DNA of 64,000 bases from Alphaproteobacteria bacterium (GCA_965243135.1 OZ251539.1:5472001-5536000); one strand, 5' to 3'. Positions 6,501 through 62,390 are shown, numbered from the stretch's first letter. Notes: generated from the sequence alone by a model not told the origin. Made by a program: numbers and translations.

Positions 6501-8265
6501 GAAATACCACCCGTCCGCGCGGGTCCAGGTCGACGGCGAAGCCCGCCGCCTGCCGGCGCTGCTCGCGCCGGTGCGGACGCCGGACGGACGCCTCGAAGCG
6601 GTGCAGCGGATCTTCGTCCGGGAGGACGGAAGCCCGGCGGAGTTCGAGGGGCGCAAGCGGCATACCGGCTCGCCGCAGCGGGGCGCCGTCTGGTTCGGCG
6701 ATCCGCGCGCGGCGCGGCGGGTCGCGATCTGCGAGGGGGTCGAGGACGCGCTCGCGATCCTCCGGGTTCTGACGCCGGAAGAGAAGCGCGGGATAGCGGT
6801 CGCGGCGAGTCTTTCCGCCGGGCGGCTGGCGCGGATCGAGATGCCCGACGCGGTCCGGGAAGTGGTGTTGGTGCAGGATCGGGACGCCGCCGGCGAGCGC
6901 GCTTGGGAAGCGCTCGGGGCGCGCTTCTCGGGGTCGGGAGTGGCGGTTTCGCGGGCGTTGCCGGAAGGCAAGGACGCCAACGAGGACCTCCTCGAACGCG
7001 GTCCGGAAGCGCTCCGGGCGGCGCTGGCGCCGCTAATCGAAGGAGCGGCGCAGCCGGGAGCGCCGCAACTGCAGGAAGCGGCGGGACGGGGAGCCGCCGG
7101 CCGGCGGGTTGCGGTCGCCGACCTGCGGATGGAGATGGAGGAAATCGGCGCCGCGGGGCTGCGCATCGTCGACGATCTCGCCGCGGGGGGAGAAGCTTCG
7201 CGCCGGATCGTGGAAGACGCGCTGGCGGGCGAGTTCCGGGGCGGAACAGTCGCCGCCCTGCGGGAACTGGGCGCCATCGCCGATGCCGAGTGGTCGCTTC
7301 TCGAGGAGCGCAGCCGCGGCGAGTGGCGCGACTCCCTCGGCGTCCCGGAGCAGGACGAGGACGTCCGGACGTCCGCCGCCGATGCTTACCGGCGCTGGAG
7401 CGAAGGTTCCGCCTCGGCCGACGGTCCGCTCGGCTGGCTGTTCGCCCGCATCGCAAGGCTCGTCGATGCGGTCCGGAGCGCGGCGCGCGGCGCGGAGACG
7501 ATCCAGGACGACCGGGCCGTGGTTCCCGAGGAGCCGGCTCCCGGCGGCGCAACTGCGGGCGGGCGGACGGATTCCGCTTCCTTCGCGAGGCTGAACGAGG
7601 AATGGAAGGAAAGGGCCGCCCGCGCCGACGCGGAACGGACGCACATGATCTACCTCGACGGGCACGGGGAGTTTCTGGGACGGATGAAGGCTCTCGCGGA
7701 AAACCTCGACGAAACGGCCCGAAGCGGCATCGCGTCGGGAGTCAAGTATCTCGAAGCCGGAGAGGACGCCCGGCGGTACGTCGAGAACTGGCTTGCGGCC
7801 ATGGCGAAGTGCGCGGCGCGGCGGGAGGTCCTGGAGAGGGCGCGGGAACTGAGCGGGGTCGCGTCGGTTGCGGAGGTGGCTTCCTACGGCGAATGGCGGG
7901 AAGAAAGCGAAGCGCTCGCGATTTCCGGGAAGATGATGCTGGCGGACGAATCGACGTTCGGCGCTCACCTGCGAAGGCAGCCGGCGGGGGAAAGCGGGGT
8001 CGAGAGCGCCGTCGAAACGATGTCGGCGCGCCACGGGCTGGACGACGGGATCGGCCCGACGGAGTCGGAACGCAAAGACGGCGGAGGCCGGCAGTCCGGG
8101 GATTTTCGCGCGGGGCAGGGGGTCGCGGGCGGACGGAACGAGGTTGCGGGCGGGGAGGTCCGGAGCGCGCCGACGGAGGCCGAACGGGATGAACGCGAGA
8201 GCGTTCGGTCGGGGGAGACAGGAGAAAAAGCCTCGGGCAAGTCCCGCGGCGGCCTGAGCCTTTGA
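3520..8265 (+). CDS. mobF: MobF (TrwC-type) relaxase fused to a degenerate helicase region and a primase/TOPRIM-like module
   Basis: N-terminal EYY, DVTCSADKTISALW and HGSSRAGDPQLHMH (HUH). Helicase remnant LDHGYAQTI. C-terminal YLPGGKR..NYWQAG...KGDLLDLI, ICEGVEDAL, QDRDAAG and KDANE (TOPRIM-like). Confidence 0.9.
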   Translation: MVASIGQAAAAEYYLESQRSYRPADAWFVPGEEPDGAWCNPSGLFDIADGSRVETPDWLALYGGFSPAGGARLTRNSGSASRSAGLDVTCSADKTISALWAVADPGLREGIERAHAAAARAALEEIVFRHCGYTRVRKRDGEIRVVPARPIAAMFPHGSSRAGDPQLHMHCVILNVARTEADGRFRAVHQYPVYLWRKAAGSAYRNALAWRLREDLGLPVERYGERGEFTRVAGVPVGLVKRWSKRREKLEKQAAAMGYAVKGNAARLAAANLAGRPRKDRHDIECRHERWRNEAAALNAAGLAESVAEAGRRSVAPRLPDGLEELPLELVRRTASFRLPELVERVENATAGALDRAGVRACLKRALERDDLVLLDGPKKSADARAGLAHTKVWSTPTEVRSAAVGGRDGAAGEGERAAAGERAEGAALLAARGYELIAAAGDWKAAKALGTDRGMRPVTIDRLLRMELGSKTAVQVDGTLTEREARCLAELAKRTGATILPAGGARRNGQGGRDMKRLSELLPAVGGKVGVGGMPGNLHLGRDLEDAMKSLVGDWDRFRRSGGTAMVLARTQAEAQALSFLLRTRALEGRGGSAAIRVAAAGRRTALLEIAPGDLVRLGAPYRGLKLPAGTVVAVKEVEAAPGSVLIRGLAGEGREVEFSPDEDSRGNAQLDHGYAQTISSARGEAVDRVFLFADDKLDASMIRRAEALRRDGLDIYVDREPLPAGDAANYLAERWRRPPPPDGPVEIPANGGGPAEGNAARFPERPEERGARERPTDPDGRGAADWLAANGSVWGRDMARVIRRAASELRERVGGDVPGNRQEPRERTAAGSGRAPSGTGEDMALQATPRELSAALAGRAEEICRAYLPGGKRTGNYWQAGSVAGERGRSLYVHLAGGRRGRWVDEATGEKGDLLDLIRAARGHSRMSDAMREAASIVGGSAPEPREAVAPATPTADPRRLENFLRSARAVGGDTPAARYLERRGLRPEGDLKYHPSARVQVDGEARRLPALLAPVRTPDGRLEAVQRIFVREDGSPAEFEGRKRHTGSPQRGAVWFGDPRAARRVAICEGVEDALAILRVLTPEEKRGIAVAASLSAGRLARIEMPDAVREVVLVQDRDAAGERAWEALGARFSGSGVAVSRALPEGKDANEDLLERGPEALRAALAPLIEGAAQPGAPQLQEAAGRGAAGRRVAVADLRMEMEEIGAAGLRIVDDLAAGGEASRRIVEDALAGEFRGGTVAALRELGAIADAEWSLLEERSRGEWRDSLGVPEQDEDVRTSAADAYRRWSEGSASADGPLGWLFARIARLVDAVRSAARGAETIQDDRAVVPEEPAPGGATAGGRTDSASFARLNEEWKERAARADAERTHMIYLDGHGEFLGRMKALAENLDETARSGIASGVKYLEAGEDARRYVENWLAAMAKCAARREVLERARELSGVASVAEVASYGEWREESEALAISGKMMLADESTFGAHLRRQPAGESGVESAVETMSARHGLDDGIGPTESERKDGGGRQSGDFRAGQGVAGGRNEVAGGEVRSAPTEAERDERESVRSGETGEKASGKSRGGLSL

Positions 8266-8913
8266 CGCTTCGCGAACTGCCGGGCGGAAAGCGGTCAGCG
8301 GTCGGCAGTTCTGCGTGGTCGCAGGTTATGGACGAAGTCGGCAGCGCGTACCTCGGTGTCGTCGCTCCTGAATGCGGCGTGCCGCCCCGGGCCGGAGCGT
8401 TCGCGTCCGGCCGCAGGTCTGGCTCGGACGGCAGGTCTTGATGCGTTGCTGAAACCTGCCGACGGGAGGGCGACAGCCTTGGATCCCACCGTTCGGGGCG
8501 TTTTTCGACAGGAGCACATTGTTTGACGGCTTCCTCCGACGCAGGCGGTTTCTGTCGCGGGCGGTCTGGCCGGTGGACTCCGAGGCGACGTTCGCCGCGG
8601 GGGCGCTGCTCAAAAAGTGCCCGTTGTTCGGCCGAACTCGGGCTTCCGGCATCGGCGGCGTAGCGGGGCCGCCGCTGCGCCGGTCTCCGTTCCACGCGAA
8701 CGGTCGAGGAGACGGCCGGAACATTCGACGCAGGGTGGACGCCTGAACCGGGAAAAGCTTTCTGCCGTGTTCCGCAGGCATCCGGCGGGGATCCTGCACG
8801 GCCGCCCGAACGCGGTCGCCGAGAGCTGACTTCCAGCCGCGGTCGGAGCGAGCAGGCAGTATGCCTTTGAATGGCGGCAACGCAGGCTGTAGCCTCGCAC
8901 CGGGAGACGGGAA

Positions 8914-61710: not shown

Positions 61711-61826
61711 GAGGGCAAAGTCAAAGCTGCGCCTTTCCCCAATTTCTTTGAGTTCCTCCGCCGCCGTAGCGTGACACTCAGTAGTCGAGCATGGCGATCA
61801 GCGTTTCCATGTGCGACACCGCACTT

Positions 61827-62390
61827 TCACGGTACCTTTACGACGATCTTGCACTGCGGCGGGGTATCGTTGCGAATCTTGAGATCGCAGTCCATCATTT
61901 CCGCTCCGTATTTCTCCCAGATATGGTCCTTCCACCCGTTCGTCGGGTCGTTTCGCGGCAGAATTCCCGTCTGCGCCTGCAAGAAAAGCCCGAGCAGCAA
62001 CAGGCATATCGCTGCGGCCGAGCCGCCCGCCAGAAACAGCCGCCTGTTGTCGTTCCGTTGCAGTTCCCGCCACCTGTCGAAATCCGCCGCGAACGCGCGG
62101 ATCCGCTTCTCGAGATCGGCCGCTGCCGCCTTGCCGTCGTCTTTCGGCGGCTCCGGCTCGGCCTGCTCCGCCGGCGCTTCGACCGCCTTCGCGAGCCCGG
62201 ACAGCGCCTCTCCGAGTTCCGCGAACCGCACCGCCATAAACTTCGCCGTCCGGGTCTCCGACGCGGCGAGCAGCGCCGAAACCTCCTCCAGCGCGCGCTC
62301 TCTTTCGTCCTTCGGAGCGTCCGCCGCCGCGGGCGGCGTTCCCCCGAGATCGGCCGGCCGGGGCGGCGGCGGAGCGGGTTCCTCAGCCAC
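61827..62390 (-). CDS. hypothetical single-pass membrane protein coupled to virD4
   Basis: Helical N-terminus, one hydrophobic segment (AAAICLLLLGLFL); overlaps the virD4 stop. Confidence 0.75.
   Translation of the reverse strand: MAEEPAPPPPRPADLGGTPPAAADAPKDERERALEEVSALLAASETRTAKFMAVRFAELGEALSGLAKAVEAPAEQAEPEPPKDDGKAAAADLEKRIRAFAADFDRWRELQRNDNRRLFLAGGSAAAICLLLLGLFLQAQTGILPRNDPTNGWKDHIWEKYGAEMMDCDLKIRNDTPPQCKIVVKVP

Follow-up and report, generated by a model that had tools for sequence, protein, structure and literature searches.

Why are unrelated cargo genes along one stretch of an alphaproteobacterial genome bordered by decayed partial copies of the genes beside them? The stretch analysed here, called the window, comprises 64,000 nucleotides of a closed single 6.1 Mb contig from an Alphaproteobacteria bacterium genome that is 98.8% complete. 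An earlier note had read the layout as a system of cassettes whose flanking arms allow cargo to loop out and re-enter related elements, and this interpretation as a whole is partly supported. Mapping by self-BLASTN and by TBLASTN of the window's proteins against the window confirmed every listed class of partial, diverged neighbour-gene copy next to cargo genes. Rather than a new cassette-shuffling system, the copies appear to be what repeated rounds of recombination and duplication left behind where an integrative conjugative element (ICE) has its cargo hotspot. We see no sign that they serve as the arms of a dedicated, reversible cassette system.

The relaxase/orf187m junction as a cargo hotspot

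The window is the variable region of an ICE of about 127 kb, named ICE-A, that extends from -36 kb to +90.7 kb relative to the window, its ends being placed by homology to ICE-B only. The same genome holds this sibling, ICE-B, together with more distant relatives that include ICE-C and C3. ICE-A carries the relaxase, coupling protein and T4SS block by which a TrwC (MOBF-type) ICE is recognised, the T4SS genes being taken as a block; the putative T4SS block, 29 kb long and located downstream, is 98.6% identical to that of ICE-B. The left flank of the hotspot is the relaxase gene (3520..8265, plus strand), which encodes 1581 aa with TrwC (E 2.5e-55), AAA_30, DUF7146 and Toprim domains in Pfam and has 97.7% nucleotide identity to its ICE-B counterpart. 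The right flank (61827..63999, minus strand) is formed by orf187m (61827-62390), which encodes a small membrane protein and sits upstream of virD4, and by the gene for the VirD4 coupling protein (T4SS-DNA_transf / TraG-D_C in Pfam); the 98.6% backbone identity to ICE-B resumes at 61877. Between relaxase-ankyrin and orf187m-virD4, the cargo of the two siblings largely differs.

In ICE-C and C3, the two other loci of the genome that retain a relaxase 3' end, the relaxase and orf187m-like genes are convergent, with stop codons 3 bp apart. At this junction ICE-A holds about 52 kb of cargo, and ICE-A and ICE-B hold 45-52 kb, comprising defence, ankyrin and other genes. Cargo would have accumulated at the tail-to-tail junction of both siblings, and the decayed neighbour copies would be scars of the entry and reshuffling of this material. 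On balance, we favour homology-anchored recombination with diverged sibling elements, accompanied by duplication and decay, as the origin of these scars. The only backbone remnants inside the ICE-A cargo are the 3' ends of the relaxase and orf187m: when every backbone ORF of 60 aa or longer was compared with the variable region by TBLASTN, orf187m 3' pieces alone appeared besides IS, repeat, autotransporter and Dcm paralogues, and all relaxase pieces in the hotspot derive from the 3' part of that gene. The pieces are also stacked by side, those of the relaxase at the relaxase flank and those of orf187m at the orf187m flank. That the remnants are the 3' ends of the two hotspot-flanking genes fits recombination anchored in flank homology. 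ICE-B has scars of its own: it carries an additional orf187m copy that two insertions have split and, upstream, part of a copy of a gene together with relaxase aa 640-895.

No close relatives of ICE-A were found among 60 related genomes or in the species-representative collection, and the comparison therefore rests on elements inside one genome. No donor element with any of the window's cargo-plus-fragment blocks was found either, so that we infer the recombination steps from what is observed directly, namely the fragments, their order and identities, the siblings and the tight junction in the relatives. Local diverged direct repeats account for 23% of the window versus 7.3% of the genome as a whole, and an Rfam gathering scan of the window gave 0 matches.

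Fragments and repeats beside the cargo genes

The relaxase is followed by an array of similar units, all on the plus strand. Unit 1 (7444..10819) begins with the 3' end of the relaxase gene, from aa 1309 onwards, and continues with ankyrin gene 1 (8914-10611) and then a spacer of about 245 bp. At junction J1, unit 2 opens with a relaxase piece (10820..11009) that corresponds to 7448-7632 at 89.5% and continues into cargo of about 52% GC (10891..13405; Pfam and composition), made up of frameshifted Type_ISP_C fragments (10891-12014; Pfam), orf222 (12033-12701) and a PIN_12 gene (12701-13405; Pfam). This cargo is flanked by relaxase pieces, the downstream ones being collinear patches (13605..14255) that correspond to 6377-6428, 7376-7427 and 7814-8385 at 86-90% and are what remains of a longer relaxase copy after internal deletions. 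Ankyrin copy 2 (14297..15964; 14297-15852 is 80% identical to 8347-9893 of copy 1) and the same spacer as in unit 1 follow, and a truncated unit 3 opens at J2 with a frameshifted relaxase piece (16169..16730) corresponding to 7444-8063 at 77%. J1 and J2 share a single position, spacer against relaxase nt 7444, and this junction J, seen twice at the identical position, marks a tandem array where a Campbell product had been proposed. The identical position could equally mean repeated entry of a fixed-joint circle, or a site-specific event.

The order A-b'-cargo-a'-B, in which each neighbour's fragment lies on the far side, had been given as that of the clearest cases; it holds for the STAND gene, one of the five listed cases, while the other four are same-side direct repeats or tandem units. 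The STAND NTPase (Avs4 / PDC-M54A-like, 1675 aa, GC about 55%) is encoded at 25734..30761 on the plus strand. Upstream lie the MzaB-C-D-E defence genes (17876..25331, plus strand; HATPase_c_3, Z1, DUF4420 and AIPR by Pfam and PADLOC), with a Dcm 3' remnant at 17880-18032 (TBLASTN). Fragment b' (25341..25556, minus strand), which starts 10 bp past the AIPR stop, is an internal piece of EcoRII (aa 197-265) whose core, 25371-25517, is 90.5% identical to 32161-32308. Fragment a' (31036-31095, plus strand) covers AIPR aa 170-189, with 31041-31085 matching 23777-23821 at 93% (E 1.4e-11). The EcoRII-C endonuclease, Vsr and Dcm (with HTH) genes (31586..34883, minus strand; Pfam) are convergent with the Mza genes. 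STAND is the sole gene inside its repeat pairs; a 65-bp dispersed repeat with at least 15 genome copies (30964-31028) and element X lie just outside a'. The fragments are tiny, at 148-216 bp and 45-60 bp, and no further pieces were detected at word size 7. Fragment b' lacks EcoRII aa 266-449, and neither fragment carries the junction-proximal end of its gene, which would be expected of a simple Campbell product.

The succession of MzaE and convergent EcoRII-Vsr-Dcm also exists naturally elsewhere: it occurs in one of 80 metagenome Mza loci (L129, AIPR identity 49%), with IS66 between, and a Vsr or Dcm homologue lies within 2.5 kb in 26 of the 52 Mza loci that have at least 1.5 kb downstream. 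No arm-bearing empty site emerged from ICE-B, ICE-C or the 80 metagenome Mza loci, and no close empty-site relative for the STAND insertion was found, the sole pairing in L129 having IS66 in the gap.

Element X (31107..31590, plus strand; other partial copies at 34620-34870 and 37544-37914) had been listed as a flank of TIR. It is a dispersed repeat with 88 BLAST matches genome-wide and corresponds to the 3' part of a 489-aa ORF that weakly resembles transposases, at its very end. A direct repeat of 257 bp and 90% identity (34611-34869 and 37536-37792) brackets a pair formed by int', a frameshifted copy of the Xer-like integrase (34858..35798, minus strand; 91% nucleotide identity to 41505-42496), and a TIR-domain gene (35980..36810, plus strand; CAP12/Pycsar TIR, PDC-S35). 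The 3' end of Dcm2 and orf319 recur as a diverged partial copy (78%; 37918..38737, plus strand) upstream of the intact pair at 39075-41314. The intact Xer-like tyrosine recombinase, Int (41571..42536, minus strand; 321 aa; Pfam and NCBIfam), falls below the NCBIfam cut-offs for XerC, XerD and IntI; scores of 50.1 bits for TIGR02249 (cut-off 265) and 42.2 for NF011946 (cut-off 435) led us to reject an identity as integron integrase. An inverted, frameshifted integrase fragment follows at 42913..43466 (plus strand; TBLASTN).

Two further integrase pieces, int'' (55731..56489, minus strand; 53% aa identity to Int) and int''' (57940-58104, minus strand), flank a trypsin-like protease candidate (56612..57559, minus strand). 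Its tentative label comes from a GxSGG-like motif together with a weak lead in the ESM Atlas. Close by are a 110-bp dispersed repeat with 58 genome matches (57815-57940) and a multi-copy IS-like element (58184..59764) with a 99% copy elsewhere in the genome and many at about 70%. Dispersed repeats or an IS occupy several cargo boundaries, where the earlier note had seen neighbour copies rather than IS ends, and part of the cargo is debris, consisting of the Type_ISP_C fragments and four broken integrase copies.

A gene of about 165 aa, Y, is present in three plus-strand copies, each bearing an orf187m 3' piece (74-82%). Y1 (43704..44839), with an in-frame TAG and the orf187m piece at 44682-44840, is 96% identical to ICE-B. 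Y2 (59839-60650), which terminates in an orphan orf187m 3' piece, and Y3 (60842-61984), which continues into intact orf187m at its 3' end, are tandem copies (59839..61984). The resemblance of Y to GIY-YIG nucleases lies in a 'GCYIF...WYVGKA' motif alone; with 0 matches in Pfam at E<=5, in NCBIfam and in PADLOC, and 0 PDB matches at E<=0.001 for an AF2 model of pLDDT 83.6, that identity is not supported. Like the integrase and Dcm2 cases, the Y genes form tandem or stacked direct repeats and do not have the Campbell layout.

Divergence of the fragments and competing histories

The many partial backbone-gene copies beside defence and ankyrin genes have identities of 73-91%. Across the fragments dS is 0.09-0.56, compared with 0.03-0.06 for the relaxases of ICE-A and ICE-B, and omega is mostly 0.24-0.54; the most diverged ones have pairwise dN/dS of 0.24-0.45 at dS 0.37-0.56, and b' has an omega of 1.06 over 48 codons. 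High dS combined with omega of 0.24-0.54 for most fragments points to diverged functional donors, and judged by these values the fragments look like pieces of diverged sibling elements, not fresh local copies; the omega values were obtained over 48-286 codons, and because they overlap with the range seen in functional comparisons, in-situ decay and import are not cleanly distinguished by them. A purely local history, with tandem duplications in one element followed by divergence and unrelated insertions and no sibling input, would suit the tandem units with one shared junction, the genome-wide frequency of local direct repeats and the omega of 0.83-1.06 for S2L and b'. We nevertheless consider it quite improbable. 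With dS of up to 0.56 the duplications would long predate the split of ICE-A and ICE-B, yet ICE-B is without them; omega is mostly below the expectation for a neutrally drifting copy; and a contig (X6) gives a weak hint, with sides of 24-35 nt, by placing a' inside a diverged AIPR allele. It is very improbable that strain variants were stitched in series during assembly, although serial diverged near-duplicates are a known failure mode of metagenome assembly: apart from the genome being a single contig of high completeness, short-read contigs X2 match 17001-34763 piecewise with 0 differences, including the joints of AIPR with b', of STAND with a' and X, and of X with EcoRII, and contigs from a public run of another study (X5) contain the identical AIPR/b' joint and the b'/STAND start (region examined in both, 17001-37000).

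Small circles carrying an A/B junction plus cargo that integrate by single-crossover (Campbell) recombination, loop out and re-enter related elements as att-less cassettes would explain the interleaving around STAND, which is exactly as a single crossover or a target duplication predicts and counts against our favoured explanation. Repeated entry would also be expected to place junction J at one relaxase position in two diverged units, the fragments appear to derive from diverged functional homologues, and sibling ICEs able to exchange circles coexist in the genome. This account is unlikely, however, as the interleaved order is confined to one listed case and the internal position of b' and a' calls for at least two extra deletions. 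Neither ICE-B nor the more distant relatives hold different cargo between the same arms or an arm-bearing empty A-B site, no cargo is common to elements with the same arms, and pseudogene debris is part of the cargo. Among the joints listed for contigs of four runs, none represented a circle or a deletion at the arms, a weak argument as it concerns contigs only. Present-day loop-out by homologous recombination would be inefficient, since the longest exact matches within the arms, which are 73-93% identical, are 20-130 bp. Small integrative modules carrying the Xer-like recombinase, or using the relaxase, could instead have entered the relaxase, orf187m and integrase genes in succession, each time at the 3' end; every module would have supplied a new 3' end, in the manner of elements that target tRNA genes or gene 3' ends, and the broken integrases and att-like repeats would be products of later decay. 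The recombinase family is represented by one intact copy and four broken ones, each adjoining a cargo gene, homology of both int' and int'' to Int stops at Int nt 42496, an inverted integrase fragment lies directly upstream in Y1, the left end of Y3 (60855-60998) has 92% aa identity to the tail of the ORF that continues past that fragment, and J1 and J2 coincide. Site-specific accretion of elements in tandem is known, for example in phage-ICE tandems (PMC13651849), which likewise show repeated integrase copies and direct repeats between modules; in the window, no common att core was found at the boundaries. Such accretion is unlikely here: no common core or inverted-repeat motif was seen at the three aligned integrase 5' breakpoints, the orf187m pieces end differently (about 61984 in Y1, about 62013-62036 in Y2), the repeats, which extend from hundreds of bp to over 1000 bp at 73-91% identity, are unlike att cores, and the recombinase falls far short of the cut-offs for integron integrases and XerC/D.

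Known systems and a possible meaning of the stacked ends

Serial displacement in rhs and cdiA genes leaves arrays of a 3' gene fragment plus partner gene beside the full gene, as orphan C-terminal modules, and the array of relaxase 3' end plus ankyrin, repeated 2.2 times, has that look. The relaxase 3' copies, however, are mutually homologous (41-81% aa) rather than alternative toxin domains, and no toxin/immunity logic is evident. In complex class 1 integrons with ISCR1, cargo lies between partial duplications of a conserved segment after circle entry by homologous recombination, which resembles the Campbell idea of cargo flanked by partial neighbour duplications; these integrons depend on an IS91-like rolling-circle element adjoining the cargo, and no such gene was found here. 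Nobusato et al. (2000) are said to have described insertion with long target duplication of restriction-modification genes. In Furuta, Abe & Kobayashi 2010 (PMC2853133), such insertions have flanking direct repeats of 46-423 bp without a mobility gene and are defined by an insert of <20 kb, direct repeats of >30 bp and no mobility gene inside; contrary to the earlier note, the layout is therefore not undescribed. STAND lies within these sizes, as its repeat pairs measure 148 bp and 45 bp, some 5.5 kb separates them and no transposase or integrase is included, and it resembles that arrangement in sitting between direct-repeat pairs from two neighbouring defence genes. In that paper (PMC2853133), each repeat reproduces a single target without interruption, as comparison with an empty site verified. 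The STAND repeats are instead short internal bits of two genes at 90-93%, with no empty site found, and the other cases in the window are kilobase-scale tandem units.

Sibling ICEs of the SXT/R391 family reportedly form hybrids (Garriss et al. 2009); to our knowledge, SXT hotspots have not been described as retaining stacked 3' fragments of the flanking backbone genes. Variable DNA in hotspots and hybrid formation between sibling ICEs are the subject of PMC4147863 for this family, and ICE-A is comparable in its conserved conjugation backbone, its hotspot-confined cargo and the proposed recombination of same-cell siblings into mosaics. In ICE-A, by contrast, the hotspot corresponds in distant relatives to a tail-to-tail junction of 3 bp.

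More speculatively, and with low probability in our estimation, the relaxase/orf187m junction may be a dedicated capture site, where single crossovers anchored in homology bring in cargo from siblings, perhaps in the form of small circles whose joint is fixed, as J is, and where every entry pushes the prior 3' gene end inward. If so, the stacked orphan 3' ends would constitute a readable record of the order of acquisition as well as substrates for later re-assortment, and the junction would do for defence genes, without att sites and independently of a recombinase, what orphan-module arrays and integron cassettes do elsewhere.

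Insertion hotspot between the relaxase and orf187m

The source genome is closed (one contig of 6.10 Mb, completeness 98.8%), and BLASTN against the whole of it delimited an ICE (ICE-A) that extends, in window coordinates, from roughly -36 kb to +90.7 kb and has the window as its variable part. A sibling in the same genome (ICE-B, 402.6-512.1 kb) has a relaxase 97.7% identical to that of ICE-A and shares a 98.6% identical 29-kb block from window position 61877 onward; more distant relatives occur at 2.93-2.98 Mb (ICE-C) and at 2.59 and 2.26 Mb. One public contig holder is labelled sponge metagenome, which suggests a sponge-associated habitat. 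Genes were mapped by Pfam, NCBIfam and PADLOC scans, and an Rfam gathering scan of the window gave no matches.

At ICE-C and the 2.26 Mb locus, the two other genome loci that retain the relaxase 3' end, the relaxase and orf187m homologue converge, their stop codons just 3 bp apart. At this junction ICE-A carries a 52-kb insert, between the TrwC-Toprim relaxase (3520-8265) and orf187m, a small membrane-protein gene (61827-62390, minus strand) beside VirD4 (62383-63999, minus strand); ICE-B carries about 45 kb, with genes that mostly differ from those of ICE-A, among them an N6/N4 methylase, Methyltransf_35 and a further Dcm. A search with every backbone ORF of 60 aa or more returned only orf187m 3' pieces from the variable region, besides IS, repeat, autotransporter and Dcm paralogues, and the relaxase pieces there all derive from the 3' part of the gene. 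Relaxase pieces lie toward the relaxase and orf187m pieces toward orf187m. In this stacking the 3' ends of the flanking genes look serially displaced, and its order at the level of the hotspot is not swapped as a circle carrying a junction of two backbone genes would give. Our literature search found no account of an ICE hotspot in which the 3' ends of the two backbone genes beside it are stacked, and we make no claim that none exists. Collapse of whole-ICE tandems was ruled out as the main cause because the variable region holds no T4SS or virD4 remnants.

ICE-B bears scars of its own: an additional orf187m copy that two insertions have split (475533-475637, 478438-478513 and 480485-480853), and, upstream of its relaxase, a partial tandem copy (429422-433291) in which a piece of the upstream gene (93%) is fused to relaxase aa 640-895 (94%), with 1.8 kb of other DNA separating it from the intact upstream gene and relaxase. 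The ICE-A relaxase (1581 aa) fuses TrwC to a helicase-like AAA_30 domain, DUF7146, a primase-like Toprim domain and a C-terminal region of ~400 aa that matches no family. In several of the genome's relaxase fragments the break falls near aa 1309-1344 (1309 in the window units, ~1318 at 2.59 Mb and ~1344 at 2.26 Mb).

Anatomy of the duplicated pieces

Self-BLASTN and TBLASTN of the window recovered every class of fragment that the earlier note had described beside cargo genes. Diverged local direct repeats make up 23% of the window versus 7.3% of the genome, which has many other repeat-rich regions; the window is not the most extreme. The arrangement proposed for the clearest of these cases, A-b'-cargo-a'-B, with a decayed piece of each neighbour on the far side of the cargo, was borne out for the STAND gene alone; the remaining listed cases are tandem or same-side repeats.

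The STAND NTPase gene (25734-30761, 1675 aa) lies between MzaB-C-D-E (HATPase_c_3, Z1, DUF4420 and AIPR; 17876-25331) and EcoRII-Vsr-Dcm (31586-34883, minus strand). Its left arm, b' (EcoRII aa 197-265), begins 10 bp past the AIPR stop, its right arm, a', corresponds to AIPR aa 170-189, and a word-size-7 search found no further EcoRII or AIPR pieces around STAND. As a plain Campbell product would retain the junction-proximal gene ends, extra deletions would be needed to derive this case from one.

The relaxase and ankyrin genes, previously read as relaxase pieces sandwiching the ankyrin and PIN genes, form a tandem array whose unit consists of the 3' end of the relaxase gene, starting at nt 7444 (aa 1309), an ankyrin gene and a ~245-bp spacer: unit 1 (7444-10819) holds the first ankyrin gene (8914-10611), unit 2 (10820-16168) the second (ending at 15964), and unit 3 (16169-16730) is truncated. 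The two spacer-relaxase junctions, J1 and J2, fall at one and the same position. The PIN cargo (Type_ISP_C pseudogene fragments, orf222 and a PIN_12 gene, 10891-13405) lies within unit 2, with a piece equal to relaxase 7448-7632 as its left flank and, on its right, collinear relaxase patches (equal to 6377-6428, 7376-7427 and 7814-8385) that are the remnant of a longer, internally deleted copy. Its boundaries carry no element X (a dispersed repeat), listed short repeat or IS-like element.

The TIR gene (35980-36810) and int', a broken copy of the Xer-like tyrosine recombinase gene (41571-42536, minus strand), are enclosed by 257-bp direct repeats (90%) that are themselves part of element X. 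The intact Dcm2-orf319 pair (39075-41314) is preceded by a partial copy of itself (78%), and the protease-like gene (56612-57559, minus strand) has a same-strand integrase piece on each side. Y1, Y2 and Y3 are copies of a ~165-aa gene together with the orf187m 3' end, Y2 and Y3 standing in tandem beside the genuine orf187m. Copies of the Y family lie at 61216-61710, 59850-60350 and 44081-44566 of the window and at 474881-475366 of the genome; Y1 has an in-frame TAG in ICE-A, and the ICE-B copy is open. The family is rare (13 proteins among 5.8 billion sequences searched), has the conserved motifs SGCYIF and PWYVG, and yields a confident AF2 model (pLDDT 83.6) with no PDB fold match at E<=0.001. 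Profile and fold tests failed to confirm the GIY-YIG identity first assigned to these genes, and the idea of homing endonucleases was therefore abandoned.

Three copies of element X fall within 7 kb (31107-31590, 34620-34870 and 37544-37914), at module boundaries, among 88 BLAST matches genome-wide that are mostly 3'-terminal pieces. The element is the 3' end of a 489-aa ORF (genome 4718076-4719545) whose DUF772 and DDE_Tnp_1 matches are sub-threshold (E 0.004-0.005), making its putative origin as an IS remnant suggestive only. The multi-copy element at 58184-59764 is termed IS-like from its copy number, a Pfam scan of two of its ORFs giving no match. Short dispersed repeats of several families (some 65-400 bp long, each with 4 to 58 matches in the genome) occupy intergenic gaps of the ICE variable region, including a 65-bp repeat (30964-31028), a ~100-bp repeat (36949-37056), a ~350-bp repeat (45839-46181), a short one at 54586-54669 and a 110-bp repeat (57815-57940) with 58 genome matches; the genome is rich in MITE-like repeats. 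All of those named except the one at 54586-54669 count, like element X and the IS-like element, among the mobile DNA present at boundaries. A 3.3-kb segment (45786-49070) with a 907-aa ORF of no matched family is 93% identical to another chromosomal locus (genome 4874318-4877609), and its left end lies at most 15 bp from the stop of ICE-B homology (45800). The autotransporter (49504-53628, minus strand) is one of a family whose paralogues occupy at least 15 loci of the genome; the closest partial copy of its region (49152-53762; 78-96%) is at genome 5565126-5570318 (window +93 to +98 kb), just past the end of the block common to ICE-A and ICE-B.

The STAND arrangement in other sequences

Assembled contigs of four public sequencing runs (X1, X2, X5 and X6) were compared with 17001-37000. 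Those of X2 matched 17001-34763 piecewise with 0 differences, through the AIPR-b', STAND-a'-element X and element X-EcoRII joints, and those of X5, from a separate study, have AIPR-b' and b'-STAND joints identical to the window. This agreement makes mis-assembly unlikely for that part of the window, and we consider an assembly artefact a highly improbable source of the fragments. Pieces of the AIPR-b'-STAND-EcoRII region were 96-98% identical in X1, a sponge metagenome, and identical in X5, which is labelled as another organism; the arrangement is thus present outside the source sample. Uncovered stretches and the low shares of X1, X5 and X6 were not counted as absence. Contigs of all four runs carry a 34-nt string between two matching pieces that is absent from this genome, and one X6 contig has a' sequence inside a diverged AIPR allele, with flanking matches of just 24-35 nt.

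Metagenomes supplied 80 Mza loci, none above 66% identity and none with a STAND homologue; in one, EcoRII-Vsr-Dcm is convergent downstream of Mza, with IS66 in the gap, and among the 52 whose downstream sequence reaches 1.5 kb or more, 26 have a Vsr or Dcm homologue within 2.5 kb. Plausibly, then, the Mza-EcoRII-Vsr-Dcm pairing is ancestral and STAND was inserted into it. An AIPR locus in one related genome has the canonical Dcm-Vsr-MzaB-E order, another has just a Vsr homologue ~10 kb from the AIPR gene, and at neither do EcoRII or STAND adjoin AIPR. In the window, MzaB-E face the convergent EcoRII-Vsr-Dcm cluster (17876-34883 region) and lack an upstream MzaA methylase, a Dcm 3' remnant standing alone at 17880-18032; the Mza system may use the Dcm encoded in the EcoRII cluster as its methylase.

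Origin of the fragments

The earlier note had proposed reversible cassettes, integrated as Campbell circles and exchanged between elements through common arms. Different cargo between common arms was found nowhere among ICE-A, ICE-B and ICE-C. At genome 456786-456812, ICE-B joins the TIR module straight to the module of the third ankyrin gene (54709-55503) and int'', another broken recombinase copy, whereas ICE-A has 18 kb between them (36931 to 55059); as a candidate empty site, the ICE-B breakpoint carries no arm copies. The right breakpoint of this difference lies within ankyrin-repeat sequence. No circle-closing or STAND-deleting joint between arms was seen in the four runs, a weak negative since it covers contigs and the listed joints only. 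Exact matches in the arms extend over at most 20 bp in a', 37 bp in b', 34-68 bp in relaxase/ankyrin, 130 bp in int' and 58 bp in Y1/Y3. A search of genome contigs with the relaxase C-terminus confirmed no close ICE relatives elsewhere, and among 60 related genomes it gave distant matches only (at most 47% over short stretches), with AIPR present in five (top identity 67%) and the Y gene in two (33-35%); an exact 19-nt scan of genome contigs for the J spacer gave six chance matches, in unrelated phyla. The cassette system is supported by none of the tests run, and we regard it as unlikely.

Nei-Gojobori estimates on small samples (48-286 codons) gave dS of 0.09-0.17 for relaxase pieces of unit 2, 0.37 for unit 3 and 0.43-0.56 for orf187m pieces, Y genes, int'' and the inverted integrase, against 0.03-0.06 for the relaxases of ICE-A and ICE-B compared with each other; omega was 0.24-0.54 in most pieces, 0.83 in the piece S2L and 1.06 in b'. 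These sequence comparisons suggest that the divergence of most pieces took place largely while they were working genes of other elements, before import, rather than by decay on the spot, and a purely in-situ duplication is accordingly a poor candidate. The same pattern supports recombination between siblings, and would fit equally whether the incoming DNA was linear, a small circle or an entire excised ICE.

The fragments are real and non-random, and it is somewhat probable that they represent the scars left in an ICE hotspot, which would have arisen through homology-anchored recombination with diverged sibling elements, tandem duplication, one insertion resembling long target duplication (STAND), deletions and repeat invasion. 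ISCR1-linked partial duplications and rhs/cdiA orphan arrays are known analogues for some of the remaining patterns of the window. ICE hotspots with hybrid formation (PMC4147863) and accretion into tandems (PMC13651849) may be further analogues; site-specific accretion as the origin of the fragments at large seems doubtful. Furuta, Abe and Kobayashi (PMC2853133) attribute direct repeats at RM genes to site-specific recombination, long-target-duplication insertion or chance insertion between repeats, the second class spanning 46-423 bp, without a mobility gene, in Types I-IV. The claim that no described system has this layout thus fails; the STAND case fits the size criteria of that class, but its empty-site partner was not found. 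As it stands, the locus exemplifies mosaicism at a hotspot, long target duplication, tandem duplication and decay, all of them known processes, not a new system.

A practical question still to be answered is how defence genes move between mobile elements that show no evident transposases or att sites for it. This locus is a well-resolved example, with a closed genome and two sibling ICEs plus distant relatives in one cell. The hotspot preserves physical scars of recombination, in the stacked 3' ends of both flanking genes and the target-duplication-like pair around STAND. If the order of these scars can be recovered, it would give a history of cargo acquisition, and circles or alternative alleles, if found in strains, would point to homology-driven cassette exchange.
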